From an uncultured Bacteriovorax sp. (GTDB taxonomy: Bacteria; Bdellovibrionota; UBA2428): a stretch of DNA of 56,497 bases. The notes under the pieces are model-generated. The model was given only the letters and a program-made list of their open reading frames with translations, did not search any database and was not told where the DNA came from. The position numbers and the translations under genes were made by a program. Location: the NCBI GenBank assembly GCA_964640545.1, contig CAZXHL010000004.1, positions 1-56,497 on the forward strand. Direction: 5' to 3'. The number at the start of each line of letters is the position of its first letter. Position 1 is the stretch's first letter. Positions 2,118 to 17,009 of the stretch are shown here, piece by piece.

Positions 2118-2921
2118 TCAGAGCAAAATGCGATCAAAAATCTCAAACCTTGTCGTCTTTCCTTCGGCCATTCGAGGTGATCCCCGCTTCCACGGCAATC
2201 TTGGACTCCATGTCGGTCGTTTGACGACAATTCTCTTCTTCACATGCGGCAAACTATCCAGAATGTATTCACTCAGGGCTTCGTCACTGAGCTCGGCGAT
2301 TCCTACGAGTTTTTTGACGATTCGTAATTCTTTTCGATTGAGTGCGGATTTTTTCTTCTCGGGATAAATAGGATCCAGATATAGAACATCGGGCTCCACC
2401 AAGGCGATCTCGCCCACATTAGCCTCAGTCCCTACGGCCCCCACAGTCCCCACACCCTCAAGCTCAGAATAATGTTCTCGAGATCGTTCAATAGCATTCA
2501 TCAACATGAAAGCCAGGACAGGATGCCTCTCATAAGCGATGACTTCATGTCCCCACAGAGACATCATGAAAGCATCGGCTCCAAGTCCAGCAGTCCCATC
2601 CATGATCTTGAGTTTTTCACCTCGCTTGACGCCCAACGCATCTCGAAGCAATTCTTTTGAATTCCAAGTTCGTTTCGCACGGAACTTCCAATCTTCCGAA
2701 AGAAAATCAACCACGAGCGGATTCCAACTTGGCTCCTCCAAGGCAGACAATTGCCAAGCACCCTCATGGCAAGAAAGCCAAAAACCCTCATCGTCCGGAG
2801 GAGCCTTTGCCGCCCCCTCAACGTCACGTGGCGTCACAAAGTCCTCCAACTTTACTTGCGTAAGAGCACGGTCTAATAGCTCCCGATCTTCCAAAGATAA
2901 CCATAGTTTGGGCTTTTCCAT
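2118..2921 (-). CDS. rsmJ: 16S rRNA (guanine1516-N2)-methyltransferase RsmJ
   Basis: DGTAGLGADAF (SAM-binding), VLYLDPIYPEKKKSALNRKELRIVKKLVG and KKRIVVKRP...RFEIF match RsmJ/YhiQ blocks. The track ORF extends to 3131, but that extension overlaps the divergent gene at 3036. I place the start at the internal ATG at 2921 (MEKPKLWLSLEDRE). Confidence 0.85.
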   Translation of the reverse strand: MEKPKLWLSLEDRELLDRALTQVKLEDFVTPRDVEGAAKAPPDDEGFWLSCHEGAWQLSALEEPSWNPLVVDFLSEDWKFRAKRTWNSKELLRDALGVKRGEKLKIMDGTAGLGADAFMMSLWGHEVIAYERHPVLAFMLMNAIERSREHYSELEGVGTVGAVGTEANVGEIALVEPDVLYLDPIYPEKKKSALNRKELRIVKKLVGIAELSDEALSEYILDSLPHVKKRIVVKRPTWSPRLPWKRGSPRMAEGKTTRFEIFDRILL

Positions 2922-3035
2922 CCGCCTTAATCTAACACATTGAAGCTCTCGCCGTATACAAGGGGTATACACATTTAGGACAAAGTTCTTGGCAATATCT
3001 TTAGATAACAAAGAATTAGCCGTATACGTATATGC

Positions 3036-3902
3036 ATGGACACGAAGAACACGACCCCACTTCCAGAGATTCTCGAATACGAGGACTTTCGAAGTTTTTT
3101 GAAAGACTGGTACAAAGCTCGGAAAGAGCAAAATTCGAAAATGAGCTTTCGTTACCTGTCTTTGCGTAGCGGACTGAAATCTACCAACTACTGGAAACTG
3201 ATCATGGAAGGCAAACGCAACTTATCCCTCCCTATGATAACGCGCTTTGCTCAAACTCTTCAGCTAGATTCAGTCCGCTCGCACTATTTCCACCACTTGG
3301 TTCGAATGAACCAATCCTCAAGCATCGACGAAAAGACATTCCACGCTCGATATGTCATCAAACTCAAAGCCGAAGTCGAAACACAAAACATCCCCAGAAC
3401 GCCCATGTCTCTCTACGACAAGTGGTACTACCCCATGTTGAGAGAAGCTTTAAATCTGAACTTCTTCCGTGAAGATCCTCATTGGATTTCAGAATTGTTT
3501 TATAGCTCGATCAGCCCCAGTGAAGCGGCTGACGGATTAGAGGCTCTTGAGAAAAGTGGAATCGCCGCTAGAGACGAGAAGGGCAGACTGCGAGCCAAAG
3601 ATGTCATCATAAGCACGGGCCATAAAACTCATAGCGCTTTGGCAACTTCACAACTCAAGCAAATGATCATTGAATCCACAAAGGCGCTTGAATTCTTTGG
3701 ATCCAACGAGAGAGAATTTACCGGCCTAACTTTAAGCTTAGATGAAGACGCCTACTCCAAAAGCCGTGAACTCGTGAAGCGTTTTATAAAAGACATTCTC
3801 CAGATAGCCAGCGACACAAACGTCCCTACGCCCAACAGAATCTACCAGCTCAACTTGCAACTATTCCCGCTAAGCGAAACAACAAAGGAAAACCAATTAT
3901 GA
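3036..3902 (+). CDS. TIGR02147/DUF4423-like protein (putative HTH regulator of unknown function)
   Basis: 288 aa. The N-terminus YEDFRSFLKDWYKARKEQNSKMSFRYLSLRSGLKSTNYWKLIMEGKRNLS...HYFHHLVRMNQS fits my recollection of the TIGR02147 family pattern (Y.DYR.FL.D.Y...K......FS.R.F....G..S...L..VI.GKRNL). Its stop overlaps the next start (ATGA at 3899..3902). Confidence 0.6.
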   Translation: MDTKNTTPLPEILEYEDFRSFLKDWYKARKEQNSKMSFRYLSLRSGLKSTNYWKLIMEGKRNLSLPMITRFAQTLQLDSVRSHYFHHLVRMNQSSSIDEKTFHARYVIKLKAEVETQNIPRTPMSLYDKWYYPMLREALNLNFFREDPHWISELFYSSISPSEAADGLEALEKSGIAARDEKGRLRAKDVIISTGHKTHSALATSQLKQMIIESTKALEFFGSNEREFTGLTLSLDEDAYSKSRELVKRFIKDILQIASDTNVPTPNRIYQLNLQLFPLSETTKENQL

Positions 3903-6460: not shown

Positions 6461-7402
6461 TCAATGCGTAGGAGCGCCGTGACGGTGCCCGGGGTCAACA
6501 TCTTTTGTGTTGTACTTGCCGCGATTATGGAAAGGCAATGAAATATGCATGTGCCCCGCATGTCGCTTTCCTGAGCCCGTATGGTGCAGTTGTTTCGAAA
6601 TCACTCCCGCGCCTTTCGCAGTCATGCAAGCACCAAAAGCTTGCCAGAACCGCTGTTGCACTAATTGCGACGTAGACTTCTTGTCAGCCTTACCTGCAAT
6701 TTCTAGATTCTCCGCATAAGTTCCAACATTGTGTTGGTAAGTTTTAACAACACCAGCAGTCGTCGTTGCACGAATGTGAGAGATATCGATAGCCCGCAAA
6801 ACTTCCGCCGCATGGTAGCTATGATTGGTGTGGTGTTCGTCGCCAATAATCCCTTGATGCAAAATCTGAATGCTAGCCAGCTCACTCACCGCAGTCGCAA
6901 TCTCAGACTTTTGAGATCGCTCAGCTCTTTGAACCGCAGCAACAATCGCATTATCAACACCAGAAGCATCTGACTTATCATCAACTCGTAGCAATGTTGC
7001 CGAAACTTCTTGTCGAGCCTTCGGCACCGTTGCCAAAGCCACACAATATGACAAATGCTTGTTTAAGAAATTAACAAACACTTCTGAAACCGCACGTGGC
7101 GCACAAGCAACCATCATGGACGGAGTAGTAGGCCAACTAACATCAGCCTTCATCGCATTGTAATCCCAAGTCACCTGTCCGTTAACGAGACCTTTGCCGC
7201 TTTGGCACTCATCCCATTTAACCATCCACTCAGAAAAGCCATTGAGATTCGTTTCCCCTTTAAATCTCAGGATCGCCCCATCAGCGTTCGTTGCTTTTTT
7301 CATAACAGGCGCAGCCTTCACCGACCCCGAAGACAAAACGACAACTGACAACAGACTAGCTCCGCCCAACAATGATTTAAATGATTCTATTTGTTTACTC
7401 AT
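6461..7402 (-). CDS. Exported His-rich protein, unknown function (weak LAS/M15-like zinc-peptidase motif resemblance)
   Basis: 313 aa. Sec signal (GGASLLSVVVLSSGSVKA|AP). Strong RBS (AGGAGG, then 4 nt ATAT, then ATG). Third gene of the minus-strand operon 10566->6461. Contains HSYHAAEVLRAIDISH and a C-terminal KRHAGHMHISLPFH...DPGHRHGAPTH. Confidence 0.6.
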   Translation of the reverse strand: MSKQIESFKSLLGGASLLSVVVLSSGSVKAAPVMKKATNADGAILRFKGETNLNGFSEWMVKWDECQSGKGLVNGQVTWDYNAMKADVSWPTTPSMMVACAPRAVSEVFVNFLNKHLSYCVALATVPKARQEVSATLLRVDDKSDASGVDNAIVAAVQRAERSQKSEIATAVSELASIQILHQGIIGDEHHTNHSYHAAEVLRAIDISHIRATTTAGVVKTYQHNVGTYAENLEIAGKADKKSTSQLVQQRFWQAFGACMTAKGAGVISKQLHHTGSGKRHAGHMHISLPFHNRGKYNTKDVDPGHRHGAPTH

Positions 7403-7432: not shown

Positions 7433-8650
7433 CTATTCGTGGCGCAGTGCTTGTTGAGTGCACTTAATGACTTTTTTAAAGTTATCCTTCACAGAGTTTC
7501 TTAGTGGACCAAAGTGGGAATAGACCCTCTTTGCCCCCGCACGTGAAACCACACTCACACATCGATCGCCAGGACTCTTGAGTCGCTGTCTCGAAGTGAC
7601 GTTTGAAAGGTCTGTTCCTGTCGGATGAATCGTGTTGATTTGAGAGTTGAAAGATTGAACGATTTTCTGAACTCCGCAATAAGCATTCAACGATTGTCCG
7701 TGGGAAGCGAAACCCATAAGTAAGTGATCCTTGTTTGAATTATTGACCTGGCAATACTTCTTATCTTGAAACAATTCGTTCCACTGTCTTACACAGGGAT
7801 CGGTATTGCCTCCGGGAGTCGGCTTGAATTGAAACAACCCTACCACCGGCCATGTTGGATATTGAGCCTCCAAGTCAGCGCGTATCGACGGACTCAAAGT
7901 TCCAGCCGCCGCATGAGCACGAAGTTTGATGTAGAAGCTTCCATCGCGATCTTCACCAAACCATACCCCGGATGGACGCTTCACCTGCTGAGTTTGAGCG
8001 TCAGTGAAGAAGCTGCTTACACGAGGTTGCTGAGCAAGAGCGTGGTTAAAGTTTTCATCCGCCCCAAACTCGACTTCAGGGTTGATGATGTCCAAAGACT
8101 CCGCATACGCCAGACATCCCATAAAGACAGTCCAACGCTGCAGAAAACGCTCCATAGCCTGAGCGTCTCCTCGGATCGCACGGCTTCGGTCGCGGTTCGA
8201 AGATGATATAAATTTCTGCAAATAAGCAAGAGCCTCTTGATCTGGAACATAATCCTCACCAAGCATATGAACGATCTGATTTCGATCTTGTTCACACAAT
8301 GGATGACTAATCAAACTAACCTGAGCAGAACGATTTTCATCAGGAAGACCATATCCACGCTGAATCGCCGAATTGGTCTTGATCGTTCGAGGCTCGAGAG
8401 CAACCCTTACCGCGGCTTCGATACTTCTTCCGAATGAACTCTCTCTTCGGTTAGGTTGCAAGCAAGTGTCCAACCTAACTTGGGATCTGAATTGCGTTAG
8501 CTGATCTCGCTTCCATGCCTGGTCAACCAAATAGGACTGACCCCAAGGAGCTCGTTGCGCCATTTCCTCGACCCATCCCGCCGCCGATGCGTCACTCAAA
8601 GAAGTGATAGCCACAGTTACCGTTAAAATTTTAAATAAGTTTTTCATCAT
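7433..8650 (-). CDS. Exported lytic-transglycosylase-like protein (divergent SLT-type motifs), paralog of 10713..11912
   Basis: 405 aa. Sec signal (TVTVAITSLSDASA|AG). Motifs FMGCLAYAESLD, VGLFQFKP, CVRQWNE, QSLNAYCGVQK, SPGDRCVS and YSHFGPLRNS all recur in the 447-aa ORF. ES...GL(F)Q...NA(Y)xG resembles the SLT-domain signature. The start lies 2 nt after the upstream stop. Confidence 0.55.
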   Translation of the reverse strand: MMKNLFKILTVTVAITSLSDASAAGWVEEMAQRAPWGQSYLVDQAWKRDQLTQFRSQVRLDTCLQPNRRESSFGRSIEAAVRVALEPRTIKTNSAIQRGYGLPDENRSAQVSLISHPLCEQDRNQIVHMLGEDYVPDQEALAYLQKFISSSNRDRSRAIRGDAQAMERFLQRWTVFMGCLAYAESLDIINPEVEFGADENFNHALAQQPRVSSFFTDAQTQQVKRPSGVWFGEDRDGSFYIKLRAHAAAGTLSPSIRADLEAQYPTWPVVGLFQFKPTPGGNTDPCVRQWNELFQDKKYCQVNNSNKDHLLMGFASHGQSLNAYCGVQKIVQSFNSQINTIHPTGTDLSNVTSRQRLKSPGDRCVSVVSRAGAKRVYSHFGPLRNSVKDNFKKVIKCTQQALRHE

Positions 8651-8652
8651 TT

Positions 8653-10566
8653 TTACTCCACAACCAAACCTTTTAAGTCATTCATCCACGGCCCCGGTGG
8701 CACAGCGATCACGCCCGACAGGTAGCCTTCATTTTTATTCATTCCAAATTGATTCAACGGACGCAGTTCAATATTCGTCGCATCCGTAGGATTCCGCGTG
8801 CTATGGGACTCAATGATCATCCCCTTCGATCCCATATAAACGTGGTATCCACCATTAGCGACACCGACAAAGAAAGGAAGCTCCTGTAACTTTCGAAGAG
8901 CAATTTCATTAAACTCTGTTTTCTCAGGATCGGTTGGACGGAAATCCAATGCCATAAAATCCACCGCAATTCCCGTAAAAACCTTTCCATAACTCAAGAC
9001 ACTTTCCATGTAGCGATGACCATCGCGAATCATAGCCCAAGTCCAAATGTGGTGGTCATTACTTATAGAGGGAGAAATCACTCGCTCTGTGGGGTGTCTC
9101 TTGTCAGGATTCCAGTAGATTGTTTTCCAACCATCTTTTTTTAACTCATTGACCAAGTAGGTTCCTTGGCCGCTATTTTCATAAATAACTTTATCAATCT
9201 CGGAGAATCTCTCACCGAGACCCGCCTGATGATACCCGTGTCTTAACTGCCGCTGCACGTAACCAATACAACTCGTCTCGACAGGTTCTTTGACTTCAGC
9301 GCCATATTTTTTATGTCTATCCAGAAAAGTCTGTTTTTCTTCAGGTGGAAGTCCTGCATAGTGAGACTTTGGACCGTACATCACACCAACACCTGTTTTG
9401 GTAATGGCATCAAAATGATCTTCTATGCTGCTGCTGATCGATGACAAAGTCGAATCTACAACTTTTTGCCAAACGCCATCCACCTCAATCACGGGAAGAA
9501 TTCTAGCTTCGCCGATCTCCAGCTCTAGGCCTTCCGCTCGCGTCTCGTAGTATGGTCTTACAGCAAGAACGGATTTTCTGAATCCGTGATCTTCACTTCG
9601 TCTAGCAATAGCCTTTGCGTGAATCAGAAACTCGCCACCAAACGCGCCCCACCTGAAAGTATTGCTTGAAGGCTTAAAGCTCAGCCCATGTTGCTCTGAA
9701 AATGGCTCCGAATAATAGACTTTATAATTTTCGAGAACACGAATAGCCTGATTGCGATCTTTCTCATTGCGATCGGCATCCATGAGAGCCTCTACAGCCG
9801 CTGAGATATCAAAACCTAAAGCGTTTTGCGCAAATGCACTTTTTAAAGCTTCACGATACGAACGACTAGAATGAATTTTTTTGAACAACGCTAAAACTCT
9901 ATCGAGCTTCTTGTCCTCATAAGATAGAAATTTTAACTTTCCGATTTCAGCAGAATATCGGCCACGAAATCCTCGCAATTCGAAGTCTTCTTTGATTTCA
10001 AAATCTACAGTGTAGCGATCGAACTGCCCTTCAACCTTCACACCCCGAAGTAGACCCGATCCACAACCGTTGTCGCCCAAAAATAATCTCTCGGCGATAA
10101 GGCGATCATCTCCCTGAAAAGGAGTTTGCGTTTTGCTTCGAAACACCGCCTGAAGCAGCGGACAAAAATCCTCTGCCATGAAGTAATATTTCTGGAATCG
10201 CTCGGATCGAACCCCAGGAGCCCGGAGTGACTTCAGCATAGCGATTCCCGACAACTGAATCCTTTGAAAAATCGAAGCTGGAGACTCTGGGTCCAAAGCA
10301 ACAATCTGCGTATTTAAAGCATCAAAGCTAATTTCTGGAGCATCCAGCCCGTTAATATTTTGCCAATTTTGAACAAAGGATCTCGCCTCTCCTCCAGAAG
10401 ATGCAGAGGACCCCACATGTTGGCCGTTGCCCTCGGCTCCATGATCATCCTTGTTGGCACAACCCGCAGTAAAAAGAAGGCTGGCAACTGCAAACACCAG
10501 CCCCACAGAACTTAGTCGTCCCTGGAAACACTCAAAATCTTTCTTCTTTTTAAAAACCGTATCCAT
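8653..10566 (-). CDS. Lipoprotein with C-terminal Cys-His (papain/NlpC-P60-like) hydrolase-type domain, paralog of 12011..12982
   Basis: 637 aa. Lipobox LLFTAGC|ANKDD. The last ~200 aa share these blocks with the 323-aa ORF: SC[IV]G, GW..(I/M)YWNPD, GVA.GGYHV..G..G(M/V)(I/V)IE(S/A)HSTR and SG(V/I)(I/L)AVPPG. The Cys...HV..G..G..IE.H layout resembles NlpC/P60 (DCSG...HVGIY.G.G..IHA). Confidence 0.5.
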   Translation of the reverse strand: MDTVFKKKKDFECFQGRLSSVGLVFAVASLLFTAGCANKDDHGAEGNGQHVGSSASSGGEARSFVQNWQNINGLDAPEISFDALNTQIVALDPESPASIFQRIQLSGIAMLKSLRAPGVRSERFQKYYFMAEDFCPLLQAVFRSKTQTPFQGDDRLIAERLFLGDNGCGSGLLRGVKVEGQFDRYTVDFEIKEDFELRGFRGRYSAEIGKLKFLSYEDKKLDRVLALFKKIHSSRSYREALKSAFAQNALGFDISAAVEALMDADRNEKDRNQAIRVLENYKVYYSEPFSEQHGLSFKPSSNTFRWGAFGGEFLIHAKAIARRSEDHGFRKSVLAVRPYYETRAEGLELEIGEARILPVIEVDGVWQKVVDSTLSSISSSIEDHFDAITKTGVGVMYGPKSHYAGLPPEEKQTFLDRHKKYGAEVKEPVETSCIGYVQRQLRHGYHQAGLGERFSEIDKVIYENSGQGTYLVNELKKDGWKTIYWNPDKRHPTERVISPSISNDHHIWTWAMIRDGHRYMESVLSYGKVFTGIAVDFMALDFRPTDPEKTEFNEIALRKLQELPFFVGVANGGYHVYMGSKGMIIESHSTRNPTDATNIELRPLNQFGMNKNEGYLSGVIAVPPGPWMNDLKGLVVE

Positions 10567-10712
10567 TTTTGTTACACTTTCTGACTCAGCGCAGCACTAC
10601 TCCTAGCGCCGTTATGCGCGCCGTGTCAACCCGGGATCTTAAAAACCCTAACATCGTCAAAAAGGTCCTGAAATCACTAAGTTTTCCGCCCTTCGATGCC
10701 GAAGCAATATTT
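10567..10712. promoter_or_regulatory. Divergent intergenic region that should carry the promoters of both muralytic-like modules
   Basis: 146-nt gap between the start codons at 10566 (-) and 10713 (+). Position only; I could not pin down convincing -35/-10 boxes by eye. Confidence 0.35.
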
Positions 10713-11912
10713 ATGAACAAACAAAAGCTGATCAAGAAAACCAGCCTCATTTTCGCTGTCTTGTGCTTTGTGACTTCCCTGCCAGTCCACGCATTTGGTT
10801 CCCGAAAACCCAAGAACCCAGCACCTGCTCCTGCTCCGCCCGCTCCGACTCCGTCCCCAACTCCAACACCAACTCCAACTCCTGAAGATCCAGGCAATGG
10901 TTCTGAACATGACTGGGATGCTTATTTTGAGACCGGACGAGATGTGGATAGCTACCGCTCCAGCTCTCAACTCACCAAAGGCCGCGAACCTGCTTCTCAC
11001 ATCACCGGAAGCTGTACTGCTTCGAACGGTAAGGAAACTTTTGCTGAACAGATTGGTTGGGCCGTTAATGAAGGCTTTTCCGCGAAGCACCAACACCTAG
11101 ATTATTTATCGACAAGCTCTTGGGATCCCTACGACATTTACAACCCAGGAAAAAATGTAGACGTATCACTTCAAAGTCATAGTCTTTGCCCTGTTGATCG
11201 AAGCAGCTTGGAACGCACGCTTTCCACATCATCGAGATCGGCTTTGATGCCTTCACAGGGAACCATCGACGACATCAACACTTTTGTAAATCGCCACAAC
11301 TCCCTACGAACGCGCTCACTGCAAGGAGATAAAAATGCCCGCAAAGATCTTCAGGCTCTGTGGGGTAAATTCATGGGTTGCCTCTCCTATATCGAATCAC
11401 TAGGAGATCCTGACACCTCTCGATCGGAGTCTGTTGCCAGACAATACGCTCCTTCCGGCTACGACAGACCTCAAGGCGTAAATTTCTACATTGACCCCAA
11501 TCAATCTGAAGCATCGAAACTCAATATTGGTTTGTTTCAGTTTGCACCGGGAGCCACGGGCAATATTCAAAGCTGCATTCGACGTTGGAACGAAGCCAAT
11601 CCTAGCTGCGAGATTCCAAGACGCGCCAGCAATAGCGAGATGATTCGAATCATTGGTAGCGCCAGACAAAGCTTCAACGCATTCTGCGGAGTAAGCAAAG
11701 TCCTAGATACACTTTACGTCCAAGCCAACACGGACAACAGCTACCGAACTGACTTGCGAAACCAAAACTCGAACGGAACCCTTAAAGCCCCGAGCGACCG
11801 ATGTGTTTCTCTGCACTTTAGAACGGGCCGCTCGTACAACCATTTTGGCCCCTTCCACAACAGCACCGGAAGGAACCTTCAAAAGCTTATGAGCTGCACA
11901 ATGGCCAACTAA
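10713..11912 (+). CDS. Exported lytic-transglycosylase-like protein with Pro/Thr/Ala linker, paralog of 7433..8650
   Basis: The track ORF starts at 10569. I choose the ATG at 10713 because it yields a Sec signal peptide (MNKQKLIKKTSLIFAVLCFVTSLPVHA|FG). Motifs are FMGCLSYIESLG, IGLFQFAP, CIRRWNE, QSFNAFCGVSK, APSDRCVS and YNHFGPFHNS. Confidence 0.55.
   Translation: MNKQKLIKKTSLIFAVLCFVTSLPVHAFGSRKPKNPAPAPAPPAPTPSPTPTPTPTPEDPGNGSEHDWDAYFETGRDVDSYRSSSQLTKGREPASHITGSCTASNGKETFAEQIGWAVNEGFSAKHQHLDYLSTSSWDPYDIYNPGKNVDVSLQSHSLCPVDRSSLERTLSTSSRSALMPSQGTIDDINTFVNRHNSLRTRSLQGDKNARKDLQALWGKFMGCLSYIESLGDPDTSRSESVARQYAPSGYDRPQGVNFYIDPNQSEASKLNIGLFQFAPGATGNIQSCIRRWNEANPSCEIPRRASNSEMIRIIGSARQSFNAFCGVSKVLDTLYVQANTDNSYRTDLRNQNSNGTLKAPSDRCVSLHFRTGRSYNHFGPFHNSTGRNLQKLMSCTMAN
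10818..10883 (+). repeat. Low-complexity CCN/ACN/GCN codon run encoding the linker PAPAPAPPAPTPSPTPTPTPTP
   Basis: Read directly: cca gca cct gct cct gct ccg ccc gct ccg act ccg tcc cca act cca aca cca act cca act cct, in frame with the CDS that starts at 10713. Confidence 0.9.
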
Positions 11913-11959
11913 CTCAGAATTGCGCTGAGCGTCAACTCCGTATATTCGTTGAGAAGAGC

Positions 11960-11990
11960 CCAAAAGTGTCTAAATTCTAGACACTTTTGG
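11960..11990. promoter_or_regulatory. Perfect 13-bp inverted repeat (stem-loop or operator) between the SLT-like and Cys-His genes
   Basis: CCAAAAGTGTCTA (11960..11972), loop AATTC, then TAGACACTTTTGG (11978..11990). No T-run follows. A TTGACG hexamer follows immediately at 11992..11997. Confidence 0.5.
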
Positions 11991-12010
11991 ATTGACGCTC
12001 TTCCCCATAA

Positions 12011-12982
12011 ATGACTATGTCTCGCGTCATGACTCAGCATATTACAAATTTGAAACACCACCCCATTACAAAACTTATGTGTTTAGCCGTCCTTGCCTTG
12101 TTTGTTGCTCTTCAACCGACAAATGCAAAAGCTGAATCCTTCCGAGGTAGCTTTTCAGCTTCTTCAGCCGAAATCAGCAAGCACAGAAACGAAATGCGGA
12201 ACTTCAGCTCCATCGTTCAAAGCTGCCTAGACTATGACTACCAACACCACGTCAGCTTCTACCGAAAATACGGATTTTCCCCATTTTACGGAAGCAACTC
12301 TAGCTTCAAACGTTTGAGCTATAGCGGCAAACGAAACTACCTTAGCCGCATCGGCAAGAACCCAAACCTCGTTGACCAAATGCAGATCACCAGCTGTGTT
12401 GGACTTGCCACAAAGTGCTACGAGAGAGCCTTCAACCAAACAGGTCAAGGCGCTACATGGAGCCGCCTCAAGCGTTACATTGCAGCCAACAACTATGATG
12501 GCTCTTCAATGATCGACGGACTCAGACAACTGGGTTGGTACGTCATGTACTGGAATCCAGACACGGCTCAAAATGCAGAGTGGGATCGCGACGAAAAAAG
12601 AAAAAATCCATCCAACAACGGAACATGGGGCTACCACGCTTGGAGATACATGACTTCCACGAAGCATAAAAAATATTACAAAAACCCAATCGACGACGCA
12701 GAAACACTCGTTAACTTCGGAACACATCCCCCTAGATTTTTAAGAAATGCTTCTCTCATGCTAGGTGTTGCGCACGCAGGCTACCACGTATTCCCAGGAT
12801 ACGAAGGTGTTGTCATCGAGGCTCACAGCACTCGAGACATTCGAGACCCGAACACTGTGGAATCAGCTGAATTTAATCCGATCCAGAATGGTGGAGCGCC
12901 CCGAGGACAATACCGCTCGGGAATCTTGGCCGTTCCCCCTGGAAGCGAGCCAAACCGCAGCTTTTCTCCTTGGGGTTGGTAA
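12011..12982 (+). CDS. Exported Cys-His (papain/NlpC-P60-like) hydrolase-type protein, paralog of the C-terminus of 8653..10566
   Basis: 323 aa. Signal peptide (LMCLAVLALFVALQPTNAKA|ES). The start is ambiguous among several in-frame ATGs (12011, 12017, 12029, 12077). Shared blocks are ITSCVG, LGWYVMYWNPD, GVAHAGYHVFPGYEGVVIEAHSTRD and SGILAVPPG. Confidence 0.5.
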   Translation: MTMSRVMTQHITNLKHHPITKLMCLAVLALFVALQPTNAKAESFRGSFSASSAEISKHRNEMRNFSSIVQSCLDYDYQHHVSFYRKYGFSPFYGSNSSFKRLSYSGKRNYLSRIGKNPNLVDQMQITSCVGLATKCYERAFNQTGQGATWSRLKRYIAANNYDGSSMIDGLRQLGWYVMYWNPDTAQNAEWDRDEKRKNPSNNGTWGYHAWRYMTSTKHKKYYKNPIDDAETLVNFGTHPPRFLRNASLMLGVAHAGYHVFPGYEGVVIEAHSTRDIRDPNTVESAEFNPIQNGGAPRGQYRSGILAVPPGSEPNRSFSPWGW

Positions 12983-13031: not shown

Positions 13032-13061
13032 GGAGCTACCTATCATAGATAGAGTAGCTCC
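13032..13061. terminator. Hairpin at the convergence point of 12011..12982 (+) and 13036..13731 (-)
   Basis: GGAGCTAC CTATC ATA GATAG A GTAGCTCC, an imperfect extended stem. It overlaps the stop codon and last codons of the minus-strand dipeptidase gene. No clear U-tract. Confidence 0.4.
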
Positions 13062-13731
13062 TTCTTACTAGAGTCCCTGACTTGGCCTCAAAGTGCCACC
13101 ATTCATTAGGAATGACTTTAAAATCACCGGCCCCCATAATCTCTCTCAGCAATTGTCGATTCTCAACCTGCTTGCGAGTCAATTTGCCCTCGGACAAGAA
13201 CTGATCCTCATGACGTGGTTGAGATAATTTTAAGAAAGAATCAAAACCCGTTCCCATATCAACTTCATTTCCTGATTCATCTTCGAGCGACAAATCTAAT
13301 GCAAATCCATAACTATGGATCGAACCATACTTCGGATTCATCACGTAGGATTCCTCAGGTGTCCCTACGACCTTCTCCCAAAGCTTCTTCTGCATGGAAT
13401 GAGGACGTAAAGCATCAAACACCAACAACTTCCACCCTGGCTTTCTGCGTTTCAGGTAGGTAATGACTTTGTCAAATTGTGCCTTGGTATCGACATGAAG
13501 AAAAGGCGTTCGAAAATCCTGATAGATATTCTCATCAAGAAAGTTGTTACTCGTTGCGTATCGCATATCCACTTTCACTTCGGGATACTGCGACAAATCA
13601 AAGAAGTCCTTTGGGGTGGAGGAGGAAGTTGTTTTCGGGGGCGTTCCCGACCCCGAAGAAAAAGCGCCTTGGCTGCTCAGAACTAACGCGAACACTGCAA
13701 ATCTGTGAAACATGAAACGGACTCCCATCAT
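13036..13731 (-). CDS. ddpX: D-alanyl-D-alanine dipeptidase (M15D, DdpX/VanX family) with N-terminal signal peptide
   Basis: 231 aa. VDMRYATSNNF, LLVFDALRPHSMQKKLW, GSIHSYGFALDLSLEDESGNEVDMGTGFD and NEWWHFE are colinear with E. coli DdpX blocks (ELKYA..DN, VIYDAYRPQ, SNHSRGTAIDLTL...DMG.GFD, EWWHFE). The N-terminus FAVFALVLSSQGAFS|SG looks like a Sec signal. The start overlaps the upstream stop (ATGA at 13731..13728). Confidence 0.85.
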   Translation of the reverse strand: MMGVRFMFHRFAVFALVLSSQGAFSSGSGTPPKTTSSSTPKDFFDLSQYPEVKVDMRYATSNNFLDENIYQDFRTPFLHVDTKAQFDKVITYLKRRKPGWKLLVFDALRPHSMQKKLWEKVVGTPEESYVMNPKYGSIHSYGFALDLSLEDESGNEVDMGTGFDSFLKLSQPRHEDQFLSEGKLTRKQVENRQLLREIMGAGDFKVIPNEWWHFEAKSGTLVRRSYSIYDR

Positions 13732-16700
13732 CCCCTACGACGACCTTTTTTAGGTTTTGGAGGGTTTTGAATTTTCTCTTTTGTTTTCGTAGCCTCGGCC
13801 GCAGCATCTCCGAGCAACTCTCCGATGGCCTCTTCATGCTCTTCCATCTGCTTTGGAGTTAGTGCGGCGCCATCGTCAAGCATAGGGCCAAGCACCTCGT
13901 CTTTCAAATAATCGCGAGCCTTTTGAGCCGAGGGAGTTTGAGCAACCCAGGGATAATACGAAACCATTTCTGGCGAGATTTTACTCCCCACGATTCCTAG
14001 CCAAAACCCAGCCTTCTTTCCACCTTTGTACCAAGGGTTATCTGGCACAGTTTGACCTTGAACAATCTCTCCCACCTGCTTCTCATAAGAAGGTGCCGCG
14101 ACGGCATACAGGATTCGATCAACAAATCCTTCATGGCTCGTATCGGACATTAGCAATTTTGTAAGCTCGCTTGAGAGCTCCTTGTCTGTCTTCGCATCAT
14201 ACTCTGGATCAGCCAGCATATTAGCTTTTAACTTACTAACTATGGCGACGCCGTCTTTCGTTGCCAGCAACTTATCTAGATACTGAGGAGACACAATCTC
14301 TCTAATAGAGTTTTTCTTGAAAGATCCAAATTTGTCATCTGCAGACTGAGGGATGAGAGCATCGAGTTGCCCAGAAACAGCGTTAGCTAGCTCAGACTTA
14401 ATGATACGCTCGCCAAGCTTAGATTGCAGCACAACCCCTGACGGACTAAGGGGAAATCCGTTACGAGCGTTTTCATTCAAGGAATTTTGTACAGCTTCCA
14501 AGTCAGCAACACAGTTTTCCTTTTCTCGAAGATATCTTTTACAAGCTGCCGTTCCCTGGATCACGAAGCTATCTAGCTCTGTCGGGTCTTTGATCTCTGG
14601 AAGAACGGTTCTAAAGTCCGCTGAATGAGTCCACCTCTTAATAACTTCAGCTCCCGCCACAGGAGCGGCTGTATAAGCACAATTCTTGAGATGAGCCATA
14701 TAAAGTGCCCGCTCTTCCTCCGTTCCAGATACGATGCTACCCTTACTCTGAGACACACACTCTTCGTAGGTTCTTCGTGCAAGTGCTTCCACTTCGGACA
14801 CATCAGTTTCGTGCTCTTTAGGATCTACTGATTTAAGAAATTTTTCGGCATTATCTCGCGCCATCAAGGCAGCAACATTTCCAACCGAATTGCTCACATA
14901 AACATCAACGCAAGCATTCAAACTCTTTTCGAGTAGCTCAGTGCTTTGATTGGAAGAAATTCCACCATTTCCATTTTCTCCAAAAACGCACTTGAGAAAA
15001 TCTTTTCGAAATGGACCCGCAACATCGGCTGCCTTCATCCCCGGAGGCAGACTTTTGGCGAGCTCATGATACAAGACTCGCTCCGCCACCTTTGGAGTAA
15101 TTTCAAGCAAGGTGTGATTTGTGAGAGCTTCCATACAATTTGGTTCTAGTTGGGGTATATGGGTTTGAATGTCCTTAGTGGACTTAACATCTTTGAAAGT
15201 TTTCTCAACACATTGATCTGCGATTCTATCAATTTGTTCCTTCATGTCTGGAAACAATTCCTCTGGAGATTCCTTGATGAAGTCATACTGATTGTGAACC
15301 TTCTCACGTATCTGACTAGGTAGCTCATAGCGCGCCTTTAACTTAACAAATTCAGTAATAGATAGTTTTGTGCATTCGACTAAATCTGCGTCATCGAGCC
15401 GAGTTTCAAAGTCATTTCCAACCGCCTTATAATGCGCCTTCACACAAAGGTCATGGTCCCTAATAATTTTTTGAACGTTTGCGTGAGCTTCCCTTGGAAG
15501 TGACTTTGCCATCTCCCTGAATTGAGAACCAAGCTGATGCTCGAGGACAATTGCGGTAGTGGAAGTCAGGATTTCATCTTCACACTTCGTAGGGTCCAAA
15601 ATCTCACCTGGTTTAAGCGATTTCTTCAAGCGCTCCACACAAGGGCTGTAAATCTCGTTAATAACTTTTTCCTGCAACGCTGTTTGCTGCAGATGATATT
15701 GTCGTTCGTATTCATCAACGGGAATGGCTCTAGGCGGCGTTCCATCATCTTTCGCAAAGCGATTATGCCCCATGGAGGCTAGAACCAATCCATCTAAGTG
15801 TTCTTTGATTTCAGGAGTGTCAACCAATCGCTTGCCAACAACTTCACTTCCAGCTTTTGTGGTGACCTCATTGAGACATTTAAAAATTTCTTCTTTTATT
15901 CCAGTGGAGCCCCGACCACCTTTTTTAAAGTACGGCACGAGAAGATCGTGGCTAGCCGCATTGGGTGACAATTGTCTGTCCCCAAATGCAACAGAGAAGG
16001 AACATGCTTTTTGATTGAGGTCAAAAATACGACTCTGAGCGTGAAGTGCCTCTTTTTCGGTAAACCCACTTTCAAGAAGGACTTCTTTGGACTTCTGTTT
16101 TGCCAGAGCCCTCGTGACCTCCAGCATAGCGGCAGCAACACAGACCTGAGTCTCAATTGTCTTGTCACTTTTGAGTTTCATAAGCACTCTATCAACGGCG
16201 CATTGTTCGTAATATTCACGTCCATGCTTTACGAATTTAGCCATATCTAGATCGCTTAGATTTTGATCTTTTAAAGTTTGAGCAATCAACATTTGCGATG
16301 CCAGCACTCCAATTTTATAAGCCGCTGTTACATCCGCCACACCTAGACAATCTTCTAATTGACTTTCCGTCGTTTTCACCGCTAGACATTGCTCAAATTC
16401 TTCCAAAACAATAGAGCTCAACCAATTCAAATCAGCTTCCGTACAACCAAGCTTTAAATCAGCAAAGGTATTGGCAACCATGGCGCGTGCAAAATTTTTG
16501 TAAGCGACCTTTCCAACCGCCAAGTTCCCAGGAAACACTTTGTAGTCTTTGAAGTACTGTCCAACCTCCATAGAAACGGTCTTAAGCTGTTGCCTAGATA
16601 GAATTGCAGACATTTCTTTAGAATTTGAAGCTTCCGAAAATACAGCGTCTGAAACAAGAGAGGCTCTTTTTTCGCTAGACAGAAAAGTCCACCCCACCAC

Positions 16701-17009
16701 TTTTCCTAAGCTAATAGGAAGCGTAAGAATCGCCTTAGGAATGACAACGGGGTTGAAACTGTCTGTCGACTTTGGAAGCAGGGTAACCGGCTTGCCAAGC
16801 CCGACAGAGCACTTTCTCAAGTCGCCGACCTCTACCGCGATGCTAATTGGGAGTTCAGTTGCGGGAATCTGCTGGCGTGAACCGCCATGGTATTGAGTAG
16901 ACAGCTGGCGCTTTTGATTGGGAAATTGAGAACGACCGGGATTCTGCTGAGCCATAGCTTGCCCCATAGCAAAAAACAAAGCCAAGCCCCCAAAAACCCA
17001 ATTCCCCAT
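13728..17009 (-). CDS. Giant exported protein (1093 aa), unknown function, periodic cysteines
   Basis: Signal peptide GGLALFFAMGQAMA|QQ. Predicted mostly helical by composition. I count 20 Cys, most in a recurring [EQDN]-C-[VLAM] context (EQCLAV, EDCLGV, EQCAVD, DQCVEK, EECVSQ, ENCVAD and others). Basic tail PKPKKGRRRG. No recognisable domain. Confidence 0.7.
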   Translation of the reverse strand: MGNWVFGGLALFFAMGQAMAQQNPGRSQFPNQKRQLSTQYHGGSRQQIPATELPISIAVEVGDLRKCSVGLGKPVTLLPKSTDSFNPVVIPKAILTLPISLGKVVGWTFLSSEKRASLVSDAVFSEASNSKEMSAILSRQQLKTVSMEVGQYFKDYKVFPGNLAVGKVAYKNFARAMVANTFADLKLGCTEADLNWLSSIVLEEFEQCLAVKTTESQLEDCLGVADVTAAYKIGVLASQMLIAQTLKDQNLSDLDMAKFVKHGREYYEQCAVDRVLMKLKSDKTIETQVCVAAAMLEVTRALAKQKSKEVLLESGFTEKEALHAQSRIFDLNQKACSFSVAFGDRQLSPNAASHDLLVPYFKKGGRGSTGIKEEIFKCLNEVTTKAGSEVVGKRLVDTPEIKEHLDGLVLASMGHNRFAKDDGTPPRAIPVDEYERQYHLQQTALQEKVINEIYSPCVERLKKSLKPGEILDPTKCEDEILTSTTAIVLEHQLGSQFREMAKSLPREAHANVQKIIRDHDLCVKAHYKAVGNDFETRLDDADLVECTKLSITEFVKLKARYELPSQIREKVHNQYDFIKESPEELFPDMKEQIDRIADQCVEKTFKDVKSTKDIQTHIPQLEPNCMEALTNHTLLEITPKVAERVLYHELAKSLPPGMKAADVAGPFRKDFLKCVFGENGNGGISSNQSTELLEKSLNACVDVYVSNSVGNVAALMARDNAEKFLKSVDPKEHETDVSEVEALARRTYEECVSQSKGSIVSGTEEERALYMAHLKNCAYTAAPVAGAEVIKRWTHSADFRTVLPEIKDPTELDSFVIQGTAACKRYLREKENCVADLEAVQNSLNENARNGFPLSPSGVVLQSKLGERIIKSELANAVSGQLDALIPQSADDKFGSFKKNSIREIVSPQYLDKLLATKDGVAIVSKLKANMLADPEYDAKTDKELSSELTKLLMSDTSHEGFVDRILYAVAAPSYEKQVGEIVQGQTVPDNPWYKGGKKAGFWLGIVGSKISPEMVSYYPWVAQTPSAQKARDYLKDEVLGPMLDDGAALTPKQMEEHEEAIGELLGDAAAEATKTKEKIQNPPKPKKGRRRG

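Follow-up and report, generated by a model that had tools for sequence, protein, structure and literature searches.

Predatory Bdellovibrionota are known to possess expanded, duplicated and lineage-specific sets of peptidoglycan enzymes (PMC11656739, PMC4876506, PMC7511926). The predation enzymes of Bdellovibrio include the deacetylases Bd0468/Bd3279, the deacetylation-specific lysozyme DslA, and expanded transglycosylases, endopeptidases and L,D-transpeptidases (PMC4876506, PMC7511926, PMC11656739). The present work concerns a cluster of five genes in a contig of 56,497 nucleotides (CAZXHL010000004.1, positions 1 to 56,497 of the forward strand, assembly GCA_964640545.1; "the window" hereafter) of an uncultured Bacteriovorax sp. 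Two of the genes (A1 and A2) encode members of one protein family, A, two (B1 and B2) encode members of another, B, and the fifth encodes a protein of 313 residues, X313. These proteins resemble the Bdellovibrio enzymes in being exported, restricted to Bdellovibrionota and subject to paralog expansion, and in that the neighbourhoods of A and B contain M15 peptidases, a deacetylase and YkuD proteins. In contrast, the Bdellovibrio enzymes can be assigned to known families (NodB deacetylase, GH-type lysozyme, YkuD), whereas A, B and X313 are unmatched, and the present host is uncultured, known from its genes alone and predatory by taxonomic assumption. We propose with moderate confidence that the locus is a clade-specific cluster of exported envelope enzymes with the core operon B1-A1-X313, probably acting on peptidoglycan.

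Layout, conservation and history of the cluster

The core lies on the minus strand, where B1 (8653-10566; 637 aa, with a C-terminal family-B domain) is followed after 2 nt by A1 (7433-8650; 405 aa), and A1 after 30 nt by X313 (6461-7402; 313 aa, predicted to be exported). On the plus strand A2 (10713-11912; 399 aa, of the widespread family-A type) diverges from B1 across an intergenic region of 146 nt (10567-10712), the presumed site of both promoters, and is followed after 98 nt by B2 (12011-12982; 323 aa, a single-domain family-B protein of the typical type, predicted to be exported). An alternative upstream TTG start of A2 at 10569 is possible; the ATG at 10713 was preferred because it is supported by the orthologs and by the signal peptide.

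A first-pass annotation of the window had described A1, B1, A2 and B2 as two paralogous pairs of "SLT-like" (soluble lytic transglycosylase) and "Cys-His" genes. Its coordinates and strands for the four open reading frames (ORFs) were exact, and the spacers of 2, 146 and 98 nt were borne out. In BLASTP comparisons A1 and A2 shared 32% identity over 304 columns (E=1e-41), and residues 375-625 of B1 shared 29% identity with B2 over 256 columns (E=1e-28). Both similarities are far above chance, and the motif blocks quoted in support of paralogy are present in both alignments and conserved family-wide. It is also correct that, read in the direction of transcription, B precedes A on the minus strand and A precedes B on the plus strand, and that a simple inverted segmental duplication does not account for the layout. 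Two features had been overlooked: an extra N-terminal region of about 370 aa in B1, which has no counterpart in B2, and X313 as the conserved third gene after A1 in the same operon.

The unit consisting of A2 and the divergent B1-A1-X313 was common to the window and four other contigs (L001, L160, L072 and L162), two of which, L160 (P0004 contig) and L162 (P0006 contig), were added through context look-ups of A1-type proteins. In the order L001, L160, L072, L162, identity to the window copy was 63, 59, 48 and 44% for A1, 57, 58, 43 and 40% for B1, 60, 57, 46 and 47% for X313, and 62, 63, 55 and 58% for A2; the components co-diverge in the same rank order across genomes. X313 directly follows A1 in all four contigs. 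The distance between B1 and A1 in the five genomes was 2, 5, 3, 6 and -4 nt, that between A1 and X313 was 30, 36, 19, 10 and -28 nt, and the divergent arrangement of B1 and A2 was kept with spacers of 54-146 nt. Tiny or overlapping gaps maintained at 40-63% protein identity are the signature of a co-translated operon, and with their common strand, short spacers and conserved order B1, A1 and X313 appear to constitute one. L001 and L160 are syntenic with the window in the flanks too; L072 and L162 keep the cluster, although homologs of the genes that flank it in the window were not found there.

The coupling of A2 to B2 is of a different kind. The A2-B2 spacer was 98, 104 and 200 nt in three genomes; in L072 the distance was 1287 nt, with a polysaccharide deacetylase gene on the opposite strand in between, and L162 had no B2, its place downstream of A2 being filled by a ricin-B-lectin protein of 513 aa (L162:1212-2753, minus strand). 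Judged by these arrangements, A2 and B2 do not form a conserved operon, and B2 is better described as a loose neighbour of A2. The tight coupling of B1 to A1 fits a functional partnership, and only the B1-A1(-X313) unit appears to bear the marks of an obligate, co-expressed one. In a more distant relative (L070:8794-16165) the gene order is A2, A1, S8 subtilase, B, A3, with three A paralogs and one B, an arrangement that points to a rearranged and expanded island in a neighbouring lineage.

The first-pass annotation had taken the two adjacencies as a sign that A and B are functional partners in general. Linkage outside the cluster was determined by scanning species-representative genomes with a family-A profile, which yielded 69 loci, nearly all from Bacteriovoracia, and by a reciprocal scan of metagenomes with a family-B profile, which yielded 80 loci. 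Family B was sought within 6 kb on either side of the A loci by tblastn (46 B queries) and by a profile hidden Markov model (HMM) on all ORFs. No B was found at 68 of the 69 A loci, the exception being L001, which is the closest relative of the window (63% identity) and fully syntenic with it. Likewise, 78 of the 80 B loci were without A; the exceptions were L072 and L076, the latter a fragment of the window's own organism. The A1-type loci L002, L003, L004, L161 and L163 were also without B, and in one metagenome-assembled genome (MAG) the locus tags of A (ABIR96_02440) and B (ABIR96_12850) are far apart. Adjacency is thus near absent outside one clade (1/69 A loci, 2/80 B loci), and a general partnership of the two families finds no support in the survey. 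For genomes outside the clade, this is in essence the result that the first-pass annotation had itself named as refuting its reading. The related suggestion, that linkage persisted despite rearrangement, holds within one clade (the five genomes and L070); elsewhere the families are unlinked.

The history of the paralogs was reconstructed from neighbour-joining trees with midpoint rooting and without support values, alongside a best-hit classification; the two approaches agreed. Among the genome-derived A genes 65 of 68 were A2-type (median identity 40% to A2 versus 29% to A1). A2 nests in a large Bacteriovoracaceae clade, and A1 belongs to a separate, older one. B2-like genes made up 120 of the 122 B genes, and the B1-like ones were the cluster orthologs only, whose branch of the B tree is the deepest or the fastest-evolving; B2 groups with members whose surroundings contain no A. 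The A and B trees show no shared duplication. The idea of two equivalent pairs, each preserved on its own, is not supported either: A1 and A2 are paralogs of ancient origin, A2 and B2 are ordinary forms that are found alone elsewhere, B1 is restricted to the cluster, and the second pair is loose. Since the pairs did not arise by duplication of one A-B pair, there is no reason for their order to be mirrored. B1 may be an ancient form, or it may have arisen locally by duplication of B2 and diverged rapidly.

Features of the three protein families

Signal peptides were predicted at the N-termini of all orthologs of the cluster proteins, and the named sources of the sequences were MAGs of Bdellovibrionota, Bacteriovoracia or Oligoflexia. 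Single-protein searches of Pfam, NCBIfam, PHROGs, PADLOC and PDB sequences left families A and B unmatched. Neither family was present in viral contigs, which rules out a phage-endolysin origin. Taking into account their invariant polar residues and export signals, A and B both look like enzymes.

Family A comprises only 146 clusters at 50% identity, as established by an exhaustive profile search of 1.84 billion representatives, and none of these bridges to a known family, apart from one fusion to YkuD_2. In the fusion protein (P0207, 592 aa) the family-A core (GLFQF...NAFCGVQKV) is joined to a C-terminal YkuD_2 L,D-transpeptidase domain. E184, D234, Q274, N282, W290, Q319, H379, N390 and several cysteines were invariant in 101 of 101 family-A sequences; the invariant cysteines of A1 are C119, C286 and C364. 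An AlphaFold2 model of A1 built with the family alignment (pLDDT 91.6, pTM 0.90) places the invariant Glu at the C-terminal end of a helix, with short strands after it. Family A would be all-helical, with conserved cysteines that are probably disulfide-bonded and an invariant Glu/Asp pair. In A2 the signal peptide is followed by a low-complexity linker rich in Pro, Thr and Ala (residues ~28-60: PAPAPPAPTPSPTPTPTPTP); similar Pro-rich linkers are present also in the A2 orthologs of L072 and L162, but not in A1.

The "SLT-like" label given to A1 and A2 was not supported. Neither A1, A2 nor 34 family-A members matched Pfam, A1 and A2 were also negative in NCBIfam, and the family-A profile found no SLT among PDB sequences at E<=10. 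Foldseek, run with the untrimmed A1 model against the PDB, gave a best E of 1.1, and none of its 56 hits was a lysozyme or transglycosylase. When family A was aligned by hhalign with the GH23 domains of E. coli Slt70, MltE, MltD and MltC, probability was 0.5% and E was 0.11, about the level of the cross-controls, and a regex search of the fetched loci revealed no canonical SLT domains. What recalls the GH23 SLT domain (PF01464) in the family is a series of motifs, AES (E184), GLFQF and Y-x-HFGP, in the same order as the ES, GLMQ and AYNxG of SLT. The spacing differs, however, and hhalign pairs GLFQF with GLMQ and does not align the two Glu-Ser motifs with each other, so that the label rests only on resemblance of motif order. 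Family A differs further in its length of about 400 aa, its conserved cysteines and its additional invariant Asp, His and Trp.

The "Cys-His" label of the B proteins fared better. C129, H259, E270, H272 and S273 were invariant in 124 of 124 family-B sequences, and the label is fair in as much as Cys129 and His259 are among them, but no known Cys-peptidase family was matched. B1 and B2 matched neither Pfam nor NCBIfam, all 46 family-B members examined were without a Pfam match, the family-B profile was negative against PDB sequences, and a further alignment-based search gained no more distant homologs. B1 matches the family-B HMM at E=1.5e-71; its N-terminal ~370 aa had no match in Pfam, and B1 of the window (LFTAGC) and of L001 carries a lipobox. 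In the AlphaFold2 model of B2 (family alignment, pLDDT 92.1) Cys129 opens helix 129-143, His259 opens strand 259-264, and E270 and H272 lie on the next strand.

This predicted layout looks papain-like or NlpC/P60-like: the invariant Cys is at the start of a helix, the His is on a beta-strand and a second His follows 13 residues on, and the sequences TSCVGL and GYHVFPGxxGxVIEAHS recall the DCSGF and HVGIYxGxxxFIHAS of NlpC/P60 proteins. The weak top Foldseek hits of B2 include ZUFSP, RipD and papain (E 0.75-1.6), but no hit was significant (E>=0.75, TM<=0.23), and searches against the PDB and BFVD yielded no significant match. The family-B domain is also about twice the size of NlpC/P60, with a long helical N-terminal part, and hhalign of family B with E. 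coli MepS, NlpC, MepH and YafL gave a probability of 0.2%, no better than cross-controls. A papain-style oxyanion Gln at position -6 was dropped as an argument, being conserved in only 26 of 46 sequences.

X313 had no match in Pfam or the PDB. It carries a motif, H-x8-D ... H-x-H, which resembles that of LAS zinc peptidases. In the form H-x(6-8)-D...H-x-H the motif is common to the X313 orthologs and to relatives that directly adjoin family B in two unrelated metagenome loci (L141:7293-7973 and L145:9060-9962), which suggests that the association of B with X313-like proteins may be broader than that of B with A. The motif is the point of likeness to LAS metallopeptidases (M15 VanX/VanY, M23, M74); in contrast to these, X313 is without Pfam, PDB or significant hhalign support, the hhalign comparisons having been made with the M15_4 and PG_binding neighbours of B.

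Neighbouring genes and competing explanations

The substrate is suggested mainly by the genes that surround family B. Among 104 immediate neighbours of B at 60 loci outside the cluster, Peptidase_M15_4 was found 11 times, PG_binding_1 8 times and VanY 8 times, all others occurring at most 3 times; polysaccharide deacetylase genes recur near B as well. In the window itself an M15 D-Ala-D-Ala dipeptidase gene (VanX/DdpX-like; 13036-13731, minus strand) is convergent with B2. The protein matches Pfam Peptidase_M15 (E=6e-28) and NCBIfam PRK10178 (E=8e-39); its gene is syntenic in L001 and was not found in L072, and the L160 contig stops inside B2. This neighbour and the LAS-like HxnD...HxH motif of X313 support a role in peptidoglycan metabolism. 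For family A, YkuD proteins are neighbours at 3 loci. A cluster around an ABC ATPase was considered as a neighbour shared by A and B, and rejected as generic synteny.

Two other recurrent neighbours were noticed. In L082, L083 and L075 a gene for a DsbB-family disulfide-bond-formation protein adjoins B upstream, on the opposite strand. At nine Bacteriovoracaceae loci (L016, L018, L026, L030, L033, L040, L049, L053 and L067) the A2-type gene is followed, ~60-130 nt downstream, by a co-oriented gene for a small exported protein of ~130-150 aa with two conserved cysteines, which could be an accessory protein or an inhibitor.

From the directly observed anatomy, paralogy, distribution, operon spacing, export signals, residue conservation and neighbour enrichment we infer enzymatic activity, substrate and cooperation as follows. 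The locus would be a cluster on the chromosome, peculiar to a single clade of uncultured Bdellovibrionota, and would supply five exported proteins of three unannotated families. Its core would be the translationally coupled B1-A1-X313 (minus strand, 10566 down to 6461), divergent from A2, with B2 a looser companion downstream of A2. A and B would both be enzymes, rather than an enzyme and an inert partner, with B a Cys/His hydrolase, and they would act together on the cell envelope, the likeliest substrate being peptidoglycan, the cell's own or that of the prey. A1 and A2 split long before the clade arose; A2 and B2 are the common forms of their families, and B1 is a divergent, domain-extended copy confined to the cluster. 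Since the pairs are not duplicates, the swapped gene order would reflect assembly and rearrangement of the island in the ancestor of the clade.

Several observations weigh against this proposal. No fold or activity is assignable to A or B, and the hhalign comparisons of A with GH23 and of B with NlpC/P60 performed about like their cross-controls. The peptidoglycan link of family A is thin: most A neighbours represent plain lineage synteny (ABC ATPase, PmbA/TldD), and in P0207, the fusion to YkuD_2, the AES motif lacks its otherwise invariant Glu (CLADALMD). The basal position of B1 may be a long-branch effect. Moreover, all examples of the cluster come from just five or six metagenomic contigs within a single clade, and its persistence could in part reflect shared ancestry.

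If that last point is carried to its end, the neighbourhood is meaningless: unrelated exported proteins were juxtaposed in one ancestor and have stayed together through the kinship of the five genomes. The restriction to one clade, the syntenic flanks of L001 and L160 and the erosion of the second pair agree with this, yet a B1-A1 gap of -4 to +6 nt was kept at 40-44% protein identity and in L072 and L162, where homologs of the window's flanking genes were not found. L070 holds A and B within 6 kb in another order, and X313-like proteins are again beside B in the unrelated L141 and L145. We regard accidental juxtaposition as unlikely. The converse possibility is that A and B form a general couple, an enzyme pair or an effector with its cognate partner, whose adjacency was preserved twice, each A being specific to the neighbouring B. 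Besides the two adjacencies in the window there is a third in L070, where A3 follows B 60 nt on, and the tight coupling of B1 to A1 recurs in five genomes. Against this stand the predominantly solitary A and B loci, the MAG with the two genes far apart, the interruption of the second pair in L072 and its absence from L162, and paralog trees without a shared duplication; by a rough estimate, about one adjacency in 69 would be expected by chance alone in a genome of ~3.5 Mb with 1-3 copies of B. A general couple thus seems improbable to us. Effectors are paired with self-protection proteins in Bdellovibrio (Bd3459/Bd3460) and in type VI secretion systems (Tae/Tai), and a toxin-immunity relationship, one family being a lytic effector and the other its periplasmic immunity protein, would suit adjacent genes with exported products in a lineage that is predatory by taxonomy. 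However, both families have invariant polar residues typical of enzymes, both are large (300-640 aa), PADLOC returned no match, and A and B are overwhelmingly solitary, which argues against such pairing because an immunity gene should track its effector. This is the explanation to which we give least credence, and we consider it very improbable.

The nature of the substrate is a separate question. Co-expressed exported enzymes might act on something other than peptidoglycan, such as prey proteins, lipoproteins, or outer-membrane or polysaccharide components, and the lack of any detectable peptidoglycan-hydrolase family or fold for A or B, the S8 subtilase inside the L070 cluster, the ricin-B lectin in place of B2 in L162, and A neighbours mostly unrelated to peptidoglycan would all be compatible with this. 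In opposition to these stand the strong enrichment of M15_4, VanY and PG_binding_1 beside B, the recurrence of deacetylase neighbours, the fusion of an A core to YkuD_2 in one protein and the LAS-like motif of X313, and a different substrate appears rather unlikely. The peptidoglycan-directed cluster of envelope enzymes that we favour can also be put in a more specific form: a new exported module, found only in Bdellovibrionota, that degrades the wall or the prey envelope with three families of new fold and comprises B1-A1-X313 along with the paralogs A2 and B2, B being a new class of Cys/His peptidoglycan amidase or peptidase, A a new Glu/Asp enzyme that cleaves glycan and has no relation to known lysozymes or transglycosylases, and X313 a cryptic LAS-like metallopeptidase. 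In this detail we consider the proposal speculative and, on present evidence, doubtful.

Flanking features and significance

The wider context of the cluster in the window is ordinary chromosome and includes LptD and AccD. A consensus scan of the 146-nt region between B1 and A2 gave no match to a sigma-70-type promoter, and in promoter and terminator scans the counts were not above those of shuffled sequence. A palindrome scan detected a perfect 13-bp palindrome with a 5-nt loop at 11960-11990, in the 98-nt A2-B2 spacer, with the arms CCAAAAGTGTCTA-aattc-TAGACACTTTTGG; it might form a hairpin or serve as an operator. A role as a conserved regulatory element was rejected, since the palindrome is specific to the window and was not kept in L001 and L160. 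A shorter inverted pair, GCGTCAA...TTGACGC, situated at both ends of the same spacer (11913-12010), is common to the window and L001.

Beyond B2, the M15 dipeptidase gene shares its first 4 nt with an ORF of 1093 aa without a Pfam match (13728-17009, minus strand), an overlap suggestive of an operon for a large unknown protein and a DdpX/VanX-like dipeptidase; the two genes are syntenic in L001. At the other side of the cluster, a mechanically called ORF with a TTG start (2118-3131, minus strand) overlaps the DUF4423 gene (3036-3902, plus strand) by ~95 nt. Its real start is probably further downstream, because the SAM_MT domain begins only at residue 113.

A pattern of two pairs in a single genome overstated the partnership of the two families: for one pair it is limited to a clade, and for the other it is incidental. 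More interesting than the gene order are the proteins themselves: A, B and X313 are phylum-restricted and enzyme-like, and the confident models of A and B have no counterpart in the PDB. Predatory Bdellovibrionota attract study for the wall-damaging enzymes they may yield, and families like A and B are invisible to current surveys of lytic repertoires, because these surveys depend on annotation (PMC11656739). If A and B prove to be envelope hydrolases, they would represent new enzyme classes and folds for cell-wall biology, and the B1-A1-X313 operon would constitute a ready-made three-enzyme unit.

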